Virus record (IMG/VR): IMGVR_UViG_2563366935_000003
DNA from: a virus
Taxonomy: Duplodnaviria > Heunggongvirae > Uroviricota > Caudoviricetes
DNA length: 6,571 bases
Reading direction: 5' to 3' (one strand)
Numbering within the stretch: the stretch's first letter is position 1; every line of letters begins with the position of its first letter. Positions 96-6,571 of this stretch are shown piece after piece. The notes under the pieces are model-generated. The model was given only the letters and a program-made list of their open reading frames with translations, made no database searches and had not been told where the DNA came from. The position numbers were made by a program, and so were the translations under genes.

Positions 96-350
96 TCTAA
101 AATTGCTATACTATTCATGTTGGTTTTTCTCCACGGATTTACCGACAACCGAAGCCCTGACTGTTCCAGCAGTTGGGGCTTCACTGTTTTGATTTCTTTG
201 CCGCATCAAGCATCACTTCTGAAAACGTGCGCTTGCCACTGAATACTCTTTCTCTTCTCAATTTTTCGTTCGTGCCAAATGATTCGCCATGAACAAAATT
301 TGGTCTTAAAATGGTAATCGCAATCTCTTTGACTACTGCATCCAAGCGAA

Positions 351-503
351 TCACACCGTTACCCCCTCTCTCTTCAGGCTGTCTATCAGGCGCTTGATAA
401 CCTCTGAGTTAAACGACCTGCACTCTTCCTTTGCCCTGCTACCGATAGCATCCTTTAACGACTGCGGCATCCTTACCAAAATCTTACTTATTTCTTTCTC
501 CAT
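351..503 (-). CDS. Arc-like ribbon-helix-helix transcriptional repressor (50 aa)
   Basis: Translation MEKEISKILVRMPQSLKDAIGSRAKEECRSFNSEVIKRLIDSLKREGVTV follows the Arc/MetJ RHH pattern (basic beta-strand RMP..L, then ..GRS.NSE.. helix), recalled resemblance to P22 Arc. ATG at 503 is preceded by a strong SD (GGAGGG, about 5-nt spacing); the longer track ORF to 539 begins at a TTG with no RBS. Confidence 0.7.
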   Translation of the reverse strand: MEKEISKILVRMPQSLKDAIGSRAKEECRSFNSEVIKRLIDSLKREGVTV

Positions 504-539
504 GTTACCCTCCACGCAAACAACTCTTTTCGAATACAA

Positions 540-568
540 AAGATAGCAAAGTGAGTATATCTAGTCAA
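540..568 (-). promoter_or_regulatory. Candidate sigma70 promoter for the Arc-like gene: -35 TTGACT (568-563), 17-nt spacer, -10 TATCTT (545-540)
   Basis: Read from the minus strand; hexamers close to consensus with canonical spacing, about 35 nt upstream of the start codon at 503; the -10 overlaps the left arm of the inverted repeat. Confidence 0.35.
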
Positions 569-593
569 AATTTTTTTGCATACACTTTGCTAT
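543..593. promoter_or_regulatory. Perfect 11-bp inverted repeat ATAGCAAAGTG (543-553) / CACTTTGCTAT (583-593), candidate operator in the divergent intergenic region
   Basis: Exact reverse complements separated by 29 bp, centred between two divergent RHH repressor genes; RHH repressors of this type bind palindromic operators. Confidence 0.45.
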
Positions 594-617
594 CAAATTG
601 AATACCAAAGGTGTTAT

Positions 618-866
618 ATGGCAAAGGGTGTGTCAATTTCTCCAACTACGGTAAGAATCCCTGAATCTTTACGCGAGGCTCTTGCTGTCAGAGCATCAAA
701 AAATGGTCGCTCTGTTAACTCCGAGATCGTCATGATTTTGCAAGCCGCGATTGATGAAGATAGGTCGCCAAAGTCAGTTGAGTCATTTGCTCAGCAAGAA
801 GCTGATAAATTCAAAGAGGCGCTACTTGAGACGCTAAAGACCATGTATGCTAAGGATGAAAAATAA
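618..866 (+). CDS. Mnt-like ribbon-helix-helix repressor (82 aa) with C-terminal helical extension
   Basis: MAKGVSISPTTVRIPESLREALAVRASKNGRSVNSEIVMILQAAI... carries the RHH core (NGRSVNSE) and a C-terminal helical tail (FKEALLETLKTMYAKDEK) like the Mnt tetramerisation helix; length matches Mnt (about 83 aa). ATG at 618; the upstream track extension starts at TTG. Stop overlaps the next start (TAATG). Confidence 0.7.
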   Translation: MAKGVSISPTTVRIPESLREALAVRASKNGRSVNSEIVMILQAAIDEDRSPKSVESFAQQEADKFKEALLETLKTMYAKDEK

Positions 867-1402
867 TGCTGCACACAATTCATTTCTTATGCCCTGTTAA
901 CACTGCCACTGTTGGGCAACTTCAGAACCACTGTCTCACCGCATTATCTCAAGGCGCAACTGAATTAAATATCCATATATCAAGTCAGGGAGGGGAAACT
1001 GCTGCTGGCTTTACTGCGTATAACTTTCTTAAGTCACTCCCTGTTACCGTTAGAACTCACAACATAAGCAATGTTGAATCCATAGCTAATATCGTTTTCC
1101 TGGCTGGCTCAGAACGTTTCGCAAACCCATTATCAAGATTCCTGTTACATCCTCTATTATGGTGCTTTGCCTCCCCAGCCGCCGACCATGCCAGATTGAG
1201 AGAGTACGGGAAATGCCTCGATAACGATCTTGATCGCTTCGTTGAGACGTTCAATATCGACATCGGAACCCATATTAGGTGGGCATCCCTGATAGCAGAC
1301 TCGACCATTTTGGATGCTAACAAGGCTCTTGAGCATGGCATAATTAATTCCATAAAAACTGCAAGGCTGGCATCCAATCAGGCAAACTGGTGGGTTGTTT
1401 GA
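866..1402 (+). CDS. ClpP-family (peptidase S14-like) serine protease paralog, 178 aa
   Basis: Collinear with ClpP core motifs: ISSQGG vs INSPGG, a Ser 29 residues after the GG (VESIA vs GQAASMG), His in RFLLHPL vs RVMIHQP, Asp in ADSTI vs ERDRF, and C-terminal EHGIINSI vs EYGLVDSI. Translationally coupled to the Mnt-like gene. Confidence 0.65.
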   Translation: MLHTIHFLCPVNTATVGQLQNHCLTALSQGATELNIHISSQGGETAAGFTAYNFLKSLPVTVRTHNISNVESIANIVFLAGSERFANPLSRFLLHPLLWCFASPAADHARLREYGKCLDNDLDRFVETFNIDIGTHIRWASLIADSTILDANKALEHGIINSIKTARLASNQANWWVV

Positions 1403-1427
1403 TGGGTAAATCATGATTACTCCTTAT

Positions 1428-1453
1428 AAAAAACCCACCTGACGGTGGGTTTA
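1428..1453. terminator. Bidirectional rho-independent terminator between convergent genes
   Basis: Perfect 9-bp stem AAACCCACC (1431-1439) / GGTGGGTTT (1444-1452) with loop TGAC, A-run upstream and T-run downstream; lies between the 3' ends of the ClpP-like gene (+) and the YafO-like gene (-). Confidence 0.6.
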
Positions 1454-1900
1454 GTCAAACATAGTGTTTCTAAAGTCTCTCGCATACCCTGCTAACACTC
1501 TCATTCTATTATGATTGTTAGCAGACATGTGAGCTACAGGATGAAAAAGAGCAATCAATGAATACCTGTTCTCATCAAAAAGATTTTGTGCATAAACGAG
1601 AGCGGTATTGGATGTTTTATGCCACTGCAACTTTTGCGGTGTGCTGATATCTGTGCCATTTTTTATTGGCTCAAATTTATTTTCACCAATTGCTAAATGA
1701 AGGTGCATAAGGCCTGCATCTTCAATATCAGGAGGTCGATGATAAGAGGTGTCTCTGCCAAAATAGCTGGGCAACGTTCCCGTAGACTTGTAGATGATAA
1801 AATCATCTACAAGTGTTTGTTTTAAATCAGGAAACTCAACAAAAACCGGGGAGAAAAAATAGTCAAAACTATCCTGATTATATTCCACGGTTACTTGCAT
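1451..1900 (-). CDS. YafO-family toxin-like protein (putative ribosome-dependent mRNA interferase), 149 aa
   Basis: Motifs DFIIYKSTGTLPSYFGRD, HLHLA, ALVYAQNLFDE, SLIALFHP and the C-terminal ANNHNRM...FR align collinearly with my recollection of E. coli YafO. ATG at 1900 with SD GAGGT; 8 nt downstream of the preceding gene's stop. Confidence 0.55.
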   Translation of the reverse strand: MQVTVEYNQDSFDYFFSPVFVEFPDLKQTLVDDFIIYKSTGTLPSYFGRDTSYHRPPDIEDAGLMHLHLAIGENKFEPIKNGTDISTPQKLQWHKTSNTALVYAQNLFDENRYSLIALFHPVAHMSANNHNRMRVLAGYARDFRNTMFD

Positions 1901-1908
1901 GTTTTACC

Positions 1909-2475
1909 TCAGTGGAAGTTACCAGAGTGAAACACACGAGTCCCGTGCTCAGCAAGCGCACGCAAACCAGCCATATCTACGGAACTATCAAAAACAACCG
2001 GAACACATGAGCGTTGTTTAATAAGACTATTCAGGTTGGTTACGGCAGATCTGGCATCAGCAACAACGATATAGATATCTCTTGCGATCTCTTTAAAATC
2101 AGCAGAAGCTTCTTTGAATACCGATTTCATTGCCCCTTCAAGTCCTCTCAATTGATGCTCTATCAATCGAGACTTTTCTGGTTCAATGATAGACAACACA
2201 TTGTCTACATTCTCATCGGTAGCGTTTGCAAGAACACGATAAGCGTATTTCAGCATTCGAGACAATTCTTTAATCGAAGACACCGCCTCATGAAGCTCAT
2301 CATTAGCCCGTTCACTGCTGAATGAGGATTGATGGTAAGCGTGCTGAACGTTATCAGTAACAACCACCTCACAACTGAACGCAGAAGCTTGCTGTAATAG
2401 CAAACCTATTGCGACTCCAGCTTTGGCAGCGTTCAAGCTAAACATTTCATCAATCCCATTAGTCTCATTGCTCAT
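1909..2475 (-). CDS. Hypothetical protein (188 aa), first gene of the operon with the YafO-like toxin; candidate non-canonical antitoxin or partner
   Basis: ATG at 2475 preceded by a near-perfect SD (AAGAAGGAGG); the track ORF start at 2505 is a TTG without RBS. No recognisable domain; sequence composition suggests a mostly helical soluble protein. Confidence 0.6.
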   Translation of the reverse strand: MSNETNGIDEMFSLNAAKAGVAIGLLLQQASAFSCEVVVTDNVQHAYHQSSFSSERANDELHEAVSSIKELSRMLKYAYRVLANATDENVDNVLSIIEPEKSRLIEHQLRGLEGAMKSVFKEASADFKEIARDIYIVVADARSAVTNLNSLIKQRSCVPVVFDSSVDMAGLRALAEHGTRVFHSGNFH

Positions 2476-2650
2476 ACAAACCTCCTTCTTATCGGAGATT
2501 ATCAATAGCTATGCATCCATTGAATACACGCTATGCGCAATAAGTTTACGTCACGTGATATCATTATGCAACCACCGTTCTATCACCGACTAACTTTACT
2601 CCCACTCCTATACATCATCTGGTATCCTGCGCAAAACTAAGGAGGTTGGT

Positions 2651-3001
2651 GTGAATGCTCAGTCTGTCATCATGGTTTTCCTTGGGCTGATTGTCGCAAA
2701 ACTATATCCAGACTGGTGGAAAGGGGCATTAGCTACTGTCGCCATCTATTTGCTTTTATCCATCGTTAAGCGATCACTCGCTGAGACCGTAAATCAAGCA
2801 AAACGTTTCTCATTTAAGAGTTTAATAAACTATGTTACTGGGCTTATTTTTTGCCTTTCAATTCTGATCGCTTCGGCTTTTTTGCCCGTATCAATAGCTA
2901 ATTTTTTTGGCGCACCATATGAGGTAGGTTATCTATTCTCTGTTTCCTGTCTTGCCATTGCTCTTCTTTACCTGTGGACGAGATCAAAGAATAAAAATTA
3001 G
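2651..3001 (+). CDS. Small polytopic inner-membrane protein (116 aa, about 4 predicted TM helices), function unknown
   Basis: GTG start 5 nt after a strong SD (TAAGGAGG, 2638-2645); four hydrophobic stretches (SVIMVFLGLIVAKL, ALATVAIYLLLSIV, LINYVTGLIFCLSILIASAFL, GYLFSVSCLAIALLYLW) and a basic C-terminus. Confidence 0.6.
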   Translation: MNAQSVIMVFLGLIVAKLYPDWWKGALATVAIYLLLSIVKRSLAETVNQAKRFSFKSLINYVTGLIFCLSILIASAFLPVSIANFFGAPYEVGYLFSVSCLAIALLYLWTRSKNKN

Positions 3002-3125
3002 CCATCCGTGGCTGCCAGTTATTGAGCTTCTTTTTGTGATGCCTGTGCGACTCTGGTGAGCGATTGTGTGACCGTACTGATCGCTCTGTCATATGCTGTG
3101 CTACCTTTTGGCGTATTTGCCAGAC

Positions 3126-3150
3126 TGAACCGCCCCGGGAATCCTGGAGA
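3126..3150. repeat. IS629 left terminal inverted repeat
   Basis: TGAACCGCCCCGGGAATCCTGGAGA is an imperfect inverted match to the right end at 4411-4435. Confidence 0.8.
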
Positions 3151-3179
3151 CTAAACTTCCTGAGAAAGAGGTAAACAGG

Positions 3180-3506
3180 ATGACTAAAAATACTCGTTTT
3201 TCCCCCGAAGTCCGTCAACGGGCAGTCCGTATGGTTCTGGAAAGTCAGAGCGAATATGACTCACAATGGGCGACAATTTGTTCCATTGCTCCAAAGATTG
3301 GCTGTACGCCGGAGACTCTGCGTGTCTGGGTTCGCCAGCATGAGCGGGATACCGGGGGCGGTGATGGAGGGCTCACCACCGCTGAACGTCAGCGTCTGAA
3401 AGAGCTGGAACGTGAAAAGCGTGAACTGCGCCGCAGTAACGATATCCTTCGCCAGGCTTCCGCTTATTTTGCGAAGGCGGAGTTCGACCGCCTCTGGAAA
3501 AAATGA
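3180..3506 (+). CDS. IS629 OrfA (108 aa; helix-turn-helix / leucine-zipper transposase subunit)
   Basis: [65 protein letters not shown]... is recognised as IS629/IS1203 OrfA; SD AGAGG upstream of the ATG. Confidence 0.9.
3497..3503 (+). other. Candidate programmed -1 ribosomal frameshift site (A-run GAAAAAA) at the OrfA/OrfB overlap
   Basis: OrfB lies in the -1 frame relative to OrfA and overlaps it by 4 nt; six consecutive A (3498-3503) sit in the last two OrfA codons. IS3-family elements make an OrfAB fusion transposase by -1 slippage on A-rich heptamers. Confidence 0.4.
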
Positions 3507-4393
3507 TGCCACTGCTGGATAAGCTGCGTGAGCAGTACGGGGTCGGACCGCTATGCAGCGAACTGCATATTGCCCCGTCAACGTATTACCACTGTCAGCA
3601 ACAGCGACATCATCCGGATAAACGCAGTGCCCGTGCGCAGCGCGATGACTGGCTGAAGAAAGAGATACAGCGCGTATACGATGAAAATCACAAGGTATAC
3701 GGTGTGCGTAAAGTCTGGCGTCAGTTGTTACGGGAAGGTATCAGAGTGGCCAGATGCACTGTGGCACGTCTCATGGCGGTTATGGGACTTGCCGGTGTTC
3801 TCCGGGGTAAAAAGGTCCGTACGACCATCAGCCGGAAAGCCGTTGCCGCAGGCGACCGCGTAAACCGTCAGTTCGTGGCAGAACGACCTGACCAGCTGTG
3901 GGTGGCTGATTTTACTTACGTCAGCACATGGCGGGGCTTCGTCTATGTGGCGTTCATCATTGATGTGTTTGCCGGATACATCGTGGGGTGGCGGGTCTCA
4001 TCGTCCATGGAAACGACATTCGTGCTGGATGCACTGGAGCAGGCGTTATGGGCCCGTCGACCGTCCGGCACGGTCCATCACAGTGATAAAGGTTCTCAGT
4101 ATGTATCGCTGGCCTACACACAGCGGCTTAAGGAAGCCGGATTACTGGCATCAACAGGAAGTACAGGCGACTCGTATGACAACGCGATGGCGGAGAGCAT
4201 CAATGGTCTTTACAAAGCGGAGGTAATACACCGTAAGAGCTGGAAAAACCGTGCAGAAGTGGAACTGGCCACACTCACGTGGGTGGACTGGTATAACAAT
4301 CGACGATTGCTGGAAAGGCTGGGCCATACTCCTCCGGCAGAAGCAGAAAAAGCTTATTATGCTTCCATCGGAAACGATGATCTGGCAGCCTGA
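3503..4393 (+). CDS. IS629 OrfB (296 aa; DDE/RNase H-fold transposase catalytic domain)
   Basis: [30 protein letters not shown]... recognised as IS629 OrfB; IS3-family catalytic-core signatures are visible ([24 protein letters not shown]). Confidence 0.9.
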
Positions 4394-4410
4394 GTTCACA
4401 GATAAAACAC

Positions 4411-4435
4411 TCTCCAGGAAACCCGGGGCGGTTCA
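4411..4435. repeat. IS629 right terminal inverted repeat
   Basis: Reverse complement TGAACCGCCCCGGGTTTCCTGGAGA matches the left end. Confidence 0.8.
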
Positions 4436-5593
4436 CATGATGATTGAGTCTGCGTCCTGTTCAATGCTTCCTGAATCACGCAAATCTGCGTTTGTCGGGC
4501 GTTTGTTTGGTCGCTTCTCAACATCGCGTGAAAGCTGACTCAGGGAAATAACCGGTGTTTTCAGGTCTTTCGCCATCGCCTTCAGGCTTCCGGAGATGTG
4601 AGCAATTGCGAGGTCGTTGCGGTCTGCTTTCGGCTTCTCAATCAGGCCAAGATAATCCGCCATGATGAGTGAGAGGTTTGGATTTTCCTGTTTGTGCCGT
4701 TCTGCGATTGAGCGTATTTCTTCGACCGATAATCGCGAGGCATCGACTACCCATACATCCAAATCTGCAAGCTGACTCATGCCGTTAGCAACACGTGCCC
4801 AGCCCTCGTCATCCATCGATGCAGGATTTCGCAGTACGCTAACCGACATCCTCCCGGCGTTGGCAATGCTTCGCTCTGCAATCTGCAATGCGCTCATTTC
4901 CATTGAGAAAATCAATACCCCGCGCCGGACGTCAGAACCAGGAATAACGCGGCTTGCAACGCCTTCGGCAATCTTCAGCGCCAGTTCGGTTTTCCCCATA
5001 CCAGGACGAGCAGCGATTATCACCAGGTCTTCCGCGTTCATCCCTCCGGTGATGGCATCAAGTTCTTCGATTCCGGTCTTCAGGGTATCGGACTCTTCTC
5101 CGTTCCTCAGACGCCTGTCAAGCGTGTCAGTGTAGTCGGTGATGATTTCCCCTAACCGTACAGGTTTAACCTCGTCACGGGGCTTTCTGATGGCTGAGAG
5201 ACGTTTTACAAGTTCATCCATCGCCTGACTCGATGCGTCGATGGTTCCGCTTTGGATTGGTTCACGCATTTCATCCATGATTTCCAGCACCAGACGGCGG
5301 TGATAGTTATCCGCGACCATTCCGGCATATCCCTTCAGGTTTGCGGCGCTCGGGCAGTTTTTGCTGGTCATCAGGATTGACGTGAAATGCTCCTCTCCGC
5401 ACGCCTCGGCAACCATCAGCGCGTCGATTAGGTTTCTGTTTCTCGCCTGCTTCCGGATAACCTCGAAGGCTTTCCGGTAGAGCGGAATTGAAAACGCTTC
5501 CGGCTCCAGCGTTGCAAGAACGTCACTGGCGGTTGGAGTTAATCCACCAATCAGCAGGCCACCGATAACGCTCGCTTCGATATCCTGTCTCAT
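4433..5593 (-). pseudogene. Phage DnaB-like replicative helicase, 3'-truncated by IS629 (about 55-60 C-terminal residues missing)
   Basis: 386-aa translation with DnaB N-terminal domain, Walker A ([10 protein letters not shown]), Walker B (LIMADYLGL) and the motif [32 protein letters not shown]. Reading frame stops only 3 codons after EQDAD, using the TGA formed by the IS629 terminus (4433-4435), where E. coli DnaB has about 55 more residues. Confidence 0.85.
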
Positions 5594-5947
5594 GCAATCC
5601 CCCTGTCTGCAAACTTCCCTTCCCGAACTCCCGTTAACGAGTCTTCTCTCAGCAGGTAATCAAAATCAGCCGTCCAGCCCGTGTCGTTGTCTCCGAAGTA
5701 AAACGGCTTGGCCTGATGCACAAACGCCCTGACATACGCTCTGAAACCGTCCACGTTTGGCGTTTTCAGTTGCGGGATGATTTTCTTCAGGCGGCGTTTT
5801 CGTTTCTCGTTGACCGCAACAGCGTGTGGCAGTCTGTCACCGACTTCGGTGTTGTAGGCGTTCAGGAAGGATTCGTAGTCGATTCGTTCTGCCTTGCGAC
5901 GTTCAGGTTTAACCTGCCCATCGCCTCCCCCATTGGGGGGTAGGGGG

Positions 5948-5975
5948 GTATTATTTATATTCTTGTTAATACCTT
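5948..5975. other. AT-rich stretch adjacent to the iterons (candidate DNA-unwinding element), next to a G/C-rich near-palindrome CCCCCATTGGGGGG (5926-5939)
   Basis: attatttatattcttgttaatacc is strongly AT-rich relative to its surroundings and lies immediately downstream of the iterons in the gene's direction, mirroring ori-lambda organisation. Confidence 0.4.
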
Positions 5976-5980
5976 CTTGT

Positions 5981-6110
5981 TCATGATGTGCGGTTGTTTG
6001 TGCGGCTTCATGTGCGCTTTCATGTGCGGCATGTACGCTGAAAGCCGCGCTATTGCTGGCTTCATCATGTGCGGCATCATGTGCGGTTGTTTGTGCGGCT
6101 TCATGTGCGG
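5981..6110. repeat. Iteron array (candidate phage replication origin): about 8 copies of a 12-bp unit, consensus yTTCATGTGCGG, in two clusters; includes an exact 31-bp duplication (5986-6016 and 6079-6109)
   Basis: Directly visible tandem periodicity: tgtgcggttgtt / tgtgcggcttca / tgtgcgctttca / tgtgcggcatgt ... catgtgcggcatca / tgtgcggttgtt / tgtgcggcttca / tgtgcggg. Lies inside the initiator gene, as ori-lambda lies inside O. Confidence 0.6.
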
Positions 6111-6354
6111 GTAAATTGTCCATTTTTTGAGCATATTCATGGTAATTTGTGATGGTTATCACACGGCCTTTTTGCTTCTCTCCATCAATGGAGATCATCC
6201 CCTCTTTCACAAAAACCTGAAGCATCCGCTCAACCTGATCACGGCTTGCTGGCTTGCCATGTCTGTCGCATAACTGAAGACCTAAATCAGCTGCTGTCAC
6301 AACCAGTTGACCGGGTTGCAGATGCCATTCATGACCTTTGAAATTCGCTTTGTA

Positions 6355-6571
6355 TGAACCGCCCCGGGTTTCCTGGAGAGTGTTTTATCTGTGAACTCAG
6401 GCTGCCAGATCATCGTTTCCGATGGAAGCATAATAAGCTTTTTCTGCTTCTGCCGGAGGAGTATGGCCCAGCCTTTCCAGCAATCGTCGATTGTTATACC
6501 AGTCCACCCACGTGAGTGTGGCCAGTTCCACTTCTGCACGGTTTTTCCAGCTCTTACGGTGTATTACCTCC
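6355..6571 (-). mobile_element. IS629 3'-terminal fragment in inverted orientation, truncated by the window edge
   Basis: 6355-6571 is the exact reverse complement of 4219-4435 of the complete copy; the terminal IR begins at 6355 (TGAACCGCCCCGGGTTTCC...). Confidence 0.9.
6397..6571 (-). CDS. IS629 transposase OrfB, C-terminal fragment (minus strand, partial at window end)
   Basis: Reverse complement is identical to the 3' end of OrfB; stop codon is at 6397-6399 on the minus strand. Confidence 0.85.
   Translation of the reverse strand, partial: EVIHRKSWKNRAEVELATLTWVDWYNNRRLLERLGHTPPAEAEKAYYASIGNDDLAA

Follow-up and report, generated by a model that had tools for sequence, protein, structure and literature searches.

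We report a probable replication origin in the 6,571-nucleotide (nt) Caudoviricetes record IMGVR_UViG_2563366935_000003 of IMG/VR, which is called the window below. Positions 5927-6150 very probably constitute the cis-acting origin of a CUS-3-type (P22-like, lambdoid) prophage. The element lies within the linker-coding middle of an O/gp18-type initiator gene and is orphaned. An original prediction, made from the letters of the window without database searches, had assigned this region to the replication origin of the ancestral prophage. Identity of the gene to CUS-3 O and conservation across related loci support that assignment.

Origins inside O-type genes are textbook knowledge, and CUS-3 is a P22-like Lederbergvirus that infects Escherichia coli K1. 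Gene O of Enterobacteria phage CUS-3 (CP000711.1, 30724-31488) and the initiator remnant of the window (5590-6354, minus strand) show 100% identity. The remnant comprises the 3' 764 nt of the gene, keeping codons 62-315 and the stop, out of a full length of 948 nt (315 codons). Full-length CUS-3 O matched the Pfam family PF04492 (Phage_rep_O) with 56.9 bits over residues 20-132, while the truncated form reached 18.2 bits over profile positions 43-95, below the cutoff of 28.7 bits.

Architecture of the repeat array

Eight direct repeats occupy 5986-6110 in strict 12-bp phase, arranged as two sets of four with a 45-bp jump between the sets. The array codes for residues ~143-189, between the N-terminal (DNA-binding) and C-terminal domains. 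The repeats share an 8-bp core, ATGTGCGG on the plus strand and CCGCACAT on the coding strand. Within it, TGTGCGG (seven copies) or TGTGCGC (one copy) occurs on the plus strand only, starting at 5987, 5999, 6011 and 6023 in one set and at 6068, 6080, 6092 and 6104 in the other. Two clusters of 12-bp repeats with the consensus yTTCATGTGCGG had been predicted; the clusters and their phase were recovered, but the consensus itself matches exactly only twice and the conserved part is the 8-mer ATGTGCGG. Also as predicted, an exact 31-bp duplication (ATGTGCGGTTGTTTGTGCGGCTTCATGTGCG) is present at 5986 and 6079, and AHEAAQTTAH occurs twice in the minus-strand translation.

Tandem Repeats Finder reported period-12 arrays at 5999-6030 and 6063-6110. 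Eight matches to ATGTGCGG with at most one mismatch fall on one strand within 130 bp, compared with a maximum of three in 500 Markov-1 simulations of the window. The whole-window count is unimpressive (10 with one mismatch, against 5.5 expected), such that the signal resides in clustering and phase. The window held no further iteron cluster, and no inverted-repeat structure was found inside the repeat units. Open reading frames (ORFs) of 45 amino acids (aa) at 5977-6114 on the plus strand and 61 aa at 5955-6140 on the minus strand carry Cys/Met- or His/Lys/Pro-rich repeats; we rejected both as genes, as they are just other reading frames of the iteron array.

Evidence for selection at the DNA level

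We compared ~130 related loci. The loci collected by kinship of the N-terminal domain were three phage records, 36 loci from one-genome-per-species contigs (N-domain identity 47-87%), 80 near-identical loci that a first search of IMG/VR with the N-domain alignment returned, and another 86 from two later IMG/VR scans. The 80 near-identical loci served to assess population variation and not covariation, for which the one-genome-per-species set and the 86 were used. All 32 scorable loci of the closest group, which span many enterobacterial genera, share the layout 12,12,(12),45,12,12,(12). Three or four cores are followed by the 45-bp jump and another three or four cores, whichever C-terminal domain, helicase or loader follows. 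One further locus of this group (L094) ends after the first set.

The repeats could in principle be a codon-level by-product of a repetitive, low-complexity Ala/His-rich linker, with no cis-acting function in the DNA. The region is indeed translated, an Ala-His dipeptide recurs every four residues in the closest 33 loci, and the iteron-encoded segment is predicted by AlphaFold to be disordered (predicted local distance difference test, pLDDT, ~30). Codon usage within the cores makes this explanation scarcely credible. In the 24 A-type loci (A at core base 5), 149 of the 150 core Ala codons are GCA and one is GCG, whereas GCA accounts for 121 of 648 Ala codons (19%) in the rest of these genes. 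In the nine G-type loci the preference is reversed: GCG is used in 40 of 41 cores (GCA once), against 39 of 264 Ala codons (15%) elsewhere. The codon after the core Ala is almost invariably CAT (178, with two CAC). The residue before it varies among Pro, Ala, Thr, Ser and Gly, yet the third base of its codon stays C, a count that is partly imposed by the search filter. The choice of Ala codon also follows residue 100 of the DNA-binding domain, and the spacing does not change from genus to genus.

The four bases that separate successive cores differ freely between genera and also among 43 variants in the scorable near-identical loci. Beyond +75, loci that have an indel or a different C-terminal domain inflate the per-column variability, and we left it uninterpreted. 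Gene 18 of Salmonella phage L, which has the same architecture, provides a separate line of evidence. Its iterons (L128, 1651-1749) are 11 bp long and are translated in all three frames (CPTD / VQRM / SNA), three units restoring the frame. As these units are read in three frames, the repeat there cannot be a protein repeat, and selection must act on the DNA.

A protein repeat lacking conservation at the DNA level among homologs had been named in advance as an outcome that would overturn the predicted origin. We observed instead that synonymous codons and spacing are fixed and that the repeats change in step with the N-terminal domain. The explanation by protein repeat alone was rejected on the codon evidence, which had already largely refuted it. 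On these comparisons, the repeats are DNA-level elements that covary with the N-terminal domain of the initiator.

Covariation of initiator and iterons

A single core position distinguishes the two iteron types, and its identity follows the initiator. In the genome set, A at core base 5 always accompanies Asp100 (24 loci) and G always accompanies His100 (9 loci), with no exceptions. The non-duplicate loci of the independent IMG/VR set gave the same result (38 Asp100/A and 21 His100/G, none discordant), bringing the pooled counts to 62 and 30 loci, respectively. Of the 117 columns of the N-domain alignment, only two separate the A- and G-type groups without error: A82, where helix 2 begins, and D100, where helix 3 begins. 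As two His100 loci of the IMG/VR set carry Leu at position 82, residue 100 is the consistent partner of core base 5. In a neighbor-joining tree, one Asp/A locus (L109) nests within the His/G clade, and its placement suggests that the two states have switched more than once.

An AlphaFold (AF2) model of the 295-aa form of the initiator places these residues in a structural context. The N-domain (pLDDT 70-87) is modeled as helix-helix-helix with a beta hairpin wing. The third helix (79-91) has D100 (D80 in model numbering) at its N-terminus, and the second has A82 at its start. If residue 100 does govern recognition, the substitution D100H, with or without A82S, would be expected to swap specificity between CCGCACAT and CCGCGCAT arrays.

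Domain exchange among relatives separates the contributions of the two ends of the protein. Klebsiella and Yersinia phages whose N-domains are 75-81% identical, but which carry a lambda-type C-terminus and a lambda-P-type loader, have CCGCACAT arrays. Conversely, mEp213, HK544, 2851 and BTP1 share a 97% identical C-terminal domain joined to another N-domain, and P22 a 60% identical one; all of these have four palindromic iterons of ~19 bp, spaced 20/24/23 bp. N-domains of 47-51% identity retain the split-array layout with other cores, namely CCCGATGAACCAT, GTCGAA/GACGAG, GAGGTAACA and GGTACACC/GATACACC. Among the compared loci, iteron type is a companion of the N-terminal and not the C-terminal domain. 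In the same loci, each type of C-terminal domain is passed on with its own type of helicase or loader.

Elements flanking and dividing the array

The predicted AT-rich tract directly follows the last iteron (5949-5985; G+C fraction 0.22, against 0.50 for the gene), and a second AT-rich stretch lies on the other flank of the array. The post-core tract (CATCATGAACAAGAAGGTATTAACAAGAATATAAATAAT on the coding strand) shows no change in any of 64 distinct close variants, and the AT-rich tract is kept in loci with differing C-terminal domains. Together with ACCCCCCTACCCCCCAATGGGGG, it aligns with mEp213 and with the distal part of the rep_origin annotated inside gene 18 in the P22 record. We infer that 5949-5985 is a DNA-unwinding element.

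A G/C near-palindrome had also been predicted. It is present at 5927-5948, but as a hairpin it is statistically weak in the window alone (5-bp stem, free energy -6.6 kcal/mol, z -1.3). P22, mEp213, the Kay-type locus, ENT1 and L117 all have this element after their AT-rich tract. Because of this recurrence at one position in relatives, the palindrome was retained as part of the origin despite its low score. In its place phage L has an unrelated, perfect 10-bp palindrome (z -4.5).

The 37-bp gap between the iteron sets contains a further conserved motif, CCAGTAATGGCGCGGCTT (CCAGyAAyGrCGCGGCT). Of 43 loci, 42 have it at the corresponding position with at most five mismatches, phage L and loci with other iterons among them; the best random match has six to seven mismatches. 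Within the motif, conservation is stronger at third codon positions than at first and second ones. A host-encoded or invariant factor may recognize this central motif. The equivalent place was located in L002-L006 and L092-L128.

The array might instead bind the initiator for regulation, through autoregulation or a roadblock to transcription of the O and helicase genes, or through copy-number control by pairing, with initiation occurring elsewhere. Iteron arrays in plasmids also act in control (handcuffing), which lends this alternative some precedent. Binding sites located within the gene of the initiator might also obstruct read-through, and the number of arrays varies naturally from one to four sets. 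We nevertheless consider a purely regulatory role improbable to a high degree. A conserved AT-rich tract and C/G element directly follow the array and align with the annotated P22 rep_origin, and the window contains no other iteron cluster. The layout also resembles that of lambda, in which iterons and an AT-rich tract lie in the middle of O (PMC7466680).

Proposed mechanism and opposing evidence

For the favored reading of 5927-6150 as an origin, the lambda scheme provides the template: the initiator occupies the array, the AT-rich tract melts open and the helicase is recruited (PMC7466680). In a CUS-3-type phage, the winged-helix N-terminal domain of the initiator would bind the 8-bp core CCGCACAT. 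By analogy with lambda, the eight cores, in two head-to-tail sets of four with a 37-bp gap, may then assemble an array resembling the O-some. The cores all repeat in one direction and lack dyad symmetry, which makes head-to-tail binding more probable than binding by symmetric dimers on palindromes. The adjacent tract of 78% A+T would melt, and the C-terminal domain of the initiator would recruit the DnaB-type helicase that the phage itself encodes in the next gene.

Several observations weigh against this reading. The Ala-His dipeptide encoded by the core is itself conserved, indicating that protein-level selection contributes part of the signal. The Asp/His-A/G association was counted over related sequences and not over independent events. 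A Foldseek search of the model against the PDB returned weak matches (best E 0.04), all of them winged-helix regulators, and a PDB sequence search with CUS-3 O gave no match. Because the Foldseek matches were weak, the winged-helix assignment draws mainly on Pfam. Natural variants with a single iteron set exist, leaving the need for two sets in doubt. Finally, the literature searched, which lay outside most subscription journals, contained no experiment on this origin type, and both activity and binding are deduced from comparison and homology.

Decay of the replication module

The features of the window are collected in Table 1. The original prediction held that the initiator had lost its 5' end and that the origin was probably orphaned; the layout confirms the loss and agrees with the second statement. 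Codons 1-61 and the upstream promoter region are gone, replaced at 6355 by the end of an IS3-family insertion sequence (IS). CUS-3 homology ends at 6354-6356, where the IS terminal repeat TGAACCGCCCCGGG starts. The start codon is among those lost, as are the codons for the first helices of the DNA-binding domain. The adjoining helicase gene has lost its last 72 codons to an IS end at 4422-4435; the corresponding P gene of CUS-3 is 1377 nt long. The truncated helicase ORF ends in a stop codon (4433-4435) that belongs to the IS, being the final TGA of its inverted repeat. None of the cis elements is damaged, and all have the sequence found in phage CUS-3. With an initiator lacking its start, its promoter and part of its DNA-binding domain, and with a truncated helicase, the origin is therefore an orphan. 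It would be replicated passively with the chromosome unless another phage supplies an initiator and a helicase that match it. That a CUS-3-type phage could fire it in trans, as the original prediction proposed, is a plausible but speculative possibility.

Table 1. Coordinates of the proposed origin and neighboring features in the window
Feature	Positions	Strand	Remarks
Iteron set I, nearest the part coding for the N-terminal domain	6067..6110	-	Four units, 12-bp spacing; coding-strand cores CCGCACAT/CCGCACAA; plus-strand cores at 6067, 6079, 6091, 6103
Iteron set II, adjoining the AT-rich tract	5986..6029	-	Four units; plus-strand cores at 5986, 5998, 6010, 6022
31-bp duplication, copy 1	5986..6016		Exact repeat ATGTGCGGTTGTTTGTGCGGCTTCATGTGCG
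31-bp duplication, copy 2	6079..6109		Exact repeat ATGTGCGGTTGTTTGTGCGGCTTCATGTGCG, 93 bp from copy 1
Central spacer motif	6042..6059	-	Coding strand CCAGCAATAGCGCGGCTT, inside the 37-bp gap between iteron sets
AT-rich tract directly downstream of the last iteron	5949..5985		GC 0.22 (78% A+T)
Second AT-rich stretch, other array flank	6111..6150		GC 0.275; codes for the conserved N-terminal-domain end HEYAQKMDNL
C/G-rich element	5927..5948		CCCCCATTGGGGGGTAGGGGGG (coding strand CCCCCCTACCCCCCAATGGGGG); GC 0.77; CCCCC-N3-GGGGG inverted repeat
Initiator gene, 3' part	5590..6354	-	Identity to CUS-3 O; full-length homologue in PF04492
DnaB-type replicative helicase gene (P22 gene 12 type), 386/458 codons	4436..5593	-	Pfam DnaB_C 223 bits, DnaB 50 bits
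Complete IS3-family element, 1310 bp, cutting the helicase gene	3126..4435	+	orfA 3180-3506, orfB 3503-4393
IS3-family element end (IS1203/IS629-like), inverted relative to the complete copy, cutting the initiator gene	6355..6571	-	Terminal repeat TGAACCGCCCCGGG at 6355

Such an orphan might have been kept because it is useful or harmful, fired in trans by related phages with local over-replication as a result, or acting as a decoy that titrates the initiator. Its cis elements are 100% identical to those of a functional phage, and near-identical initiators are widespread. A precedent exists in plasmid-borne oop-ori-lambda, which inhibits rep-lambda phages (PMC3349717). We regard retention for such a role as very unlikely. 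The junction between the initiator gene and the IS occurred in 0 of 5426 complete E. coli genomes, which points to a recent, private event and not a maintained state. The origin is also present as a single chromosomal copy, and loss of the upstream promoter region leaves it without the transcription through the origin that lambda needs (PMC7466680).

The flanking element fits the IS3 family, whose members are 1.3 kb long, with terminal inverted repeats and orfA/orfB joined by a programmed frameshift; here orfA and orfB encode 108 and 296 aa. RefSeq labels identical copies as 'IS3 family transposase, programmed frameshift' or 'IS1203'; on these annotations, we take the element to be IS1203/IS629-like. 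Terminal 14-mers are located at 82-95, 3126, 4422-4435 and 6355, and a third IS end occupies 1-95. The phage fragment 4436-6354 is thus bracketed by two inverted IS copies, an arrangement like that of a composite transposon. A scan of 5500-6571 for promoters and terminators gave no signal above chance.

E. coli AH20K059 carries a CUS-3-like remnant at tRNA-Arg/intS in which the helicase is cut at the same point and the initiator is intact (295 aa). The complete IS copy of the window is oriented opposite to the IS at this junction in AH20K059, and the two orientations suggest an IS-mediated rearrangement. As the junction within the initiator gene is not found among the 5426 genomes, it represents a further, private and recent step of decay. 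Judged from the RefSeq annotation of the identical AH20K059 region, 96-3125 is another piece of the same prophage type. That annotation lists two Arc-family repressor-like genes, a ClpP-like protease subunit, a YafO-family toxin and hypothetical genes, and an antirepressor fragment adjoins the equivalent region in AH20K059. For this genome the origin carries little weight, marking a decaying CUS-3-like prophage whose replication module was cut by IS elements on both sides.

Population variation and distribution

Relatives of the window initiator occur at lengths of 264/268/284/292, 295, 326 and 357 aa. They differ by whole blocks of 31 aa, giving one to four iteron sets. The 295-aa form dominates (clusters of 294, 409 and 1458 members). 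Single-set variants are not rare, with clusters of 42-61 members, and variants in set number are represented by P0001, P0002, P0006, P0037, P0038, P0045, P0047 and P0051. Thirty-one residues correspond to 93 bp, the distance between the copies of the 31-bp duplication, which fits unequal recombination between them. Given this equality of block size and copy distance, the array looks recombinationally unstable. The 93-bp copy-number polymorphism may modulate replication of Shiga toxin (Stx) phages.

A total of 1254 related proteins were found. Initiators of 98-99% identity are present in Stx2a-converting phages (many at 98%) and in HF4s. The origin type is very common, being present in CUS-3/HF4s-like phages, many Stx2a-converting phages, and Salmonella and Klebsiella prophages. 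An enterobacterial O-type initiator, of a protein type abundant in Salmonella enterica (P0079-P0120), was also met in the 2692-bp record OR850084.1 (L006), which is labeled 'Staphylococcus phage SA 1298 Kay'. The Staphylococcus label is almost certainly a mis-assignment or contamination. Decayed initiator copies were also encountered, one in Xenorhabdus ehlersii (L094) ending at 174 aa, after the first iteron set, and another in a Symbiopectobacterium metagenome-assembled genome (L125) ending after 78 aa. Remnants of this initiator module are common in enterobacterial genomes.

Comparison with known origin systems

The window had been likened to the origin-within-O arrangement of lambdoid phages, and the general plan holds. 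As in ori-lambda, P22 gene 18 and HK97 gp54, the proposed origin lies mid-gene in an O-family (PF04492) initiator, in the linker between the DNA-binding domain and the domain that recruits the helicase or loader. These systems and the window alike have multiple initiator sites followed by an AT-rich tract. In the window there are eight such sites, tied to the N-terminal and independent of the C-terminal domain, and the tract comes right after the last iteron in the direction of O transcription. Iteron specificity goes with the N-terminal domain in lambda, P22 and HK97 as well, and the likeness to P22 and mEp213 extends to the sequence of the AT-rich tract and C/G element.

The iterons themselves are not of the lambda/P22 type. 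Those of lambda, P22 and HK97 number four (six in some Stx phages), are ~19 bp long with internal dyad symmetry, are spaced 20-24 bp apart and are bound by O dimers. The window units have neither this length and symmetry nor this spacing. They are eight direct-repeat cores of 8 bp at 12-bp spacing, in two sets with a conserved 37-bp gap. The original prediction had proposed comparing its iterons with P22 and lambda origins, and that comparison yields an alignment of the AT-rich and C/G part with P22 and a divergence in the repeats, which are short and direct and not 19-bp palindromes.

Closer in layout is Salmonella phage L. The split arrangement of direct repeats has already been noted as the likely origin in gene 18 of phages L and ST64T (Zaworski et al. 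2020, PMC8022706), and GenBank MW013503 (phage L) annotates its rep_origin as putative; it is a predicted origin, like that of the window. Both have two sets of short direct repeats (3+3 in phage L, 4+4 in the window), a spacer of fixed length with a central motif (CCAGTAATGACGCGGCT; two mismatches to CCAGyAAyGrCGCGGCT in each), an AT-rich tract followed by a palindrome, and a downstream gene for a DnaB-type helicase. They differ in that phage L uses an 11-bp unit with a TGTCCAACG core, a 44-bp jump and three reading frames, against 12 bp and 45 bp in the window. Its initiator is 23% identical, and its palindrome has another sequence.

These likenesses raise the possibility, which we hold only tentatively and think on balance unlikely, that the CUS-3-, Kay-, ENT1- and phage L-type origins form a distinct architectural class of O-family origins, defined jointly by three features. 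First, two head-to-tail arrays of 11-12-bp units would be bound by initiator monomers, not by dimers on palindromes. Second, residue 100, at the N-terminus of the recognition helix, would read core base 5 (Asp-A, His-G). Third, the spacer motif would remain constant while the iterons change, being read by a factor that is probably host-encoded or invariant. The literature searched, as delimited above, contained no specific description of the CUS-3, HK620 or Sf6 origin, nor one of a common architecture or of the Asp/His-A/G relation. Should the class be real, the orphan copy in the window would be a ready-made natural substrate for trans-activation. The covariation of one residue with one base offers an unusually clean natural experiment in initiator-DNA recognition, which might serve in engineering orthogonal phage or plasmid origins.

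A likeness also extends to iteron plasmids, and we draw it without claiming sequence homology. At iteron plasmid origins, monomers of winged-helix Rep proteins, which have two such domains, bind direct repeats that are typically 17-22 bp long, at ~22-bp spacing, outside the rep gene. The window differs in its 12-bp period, in its coding array and in the single winged-helix domain of the modeled initiator. Shared with these plasmids are head-to-tail direct repeats, a winged-helix initiator that in the window presumably binds them, and an adjoining AT-rich unwinding element.

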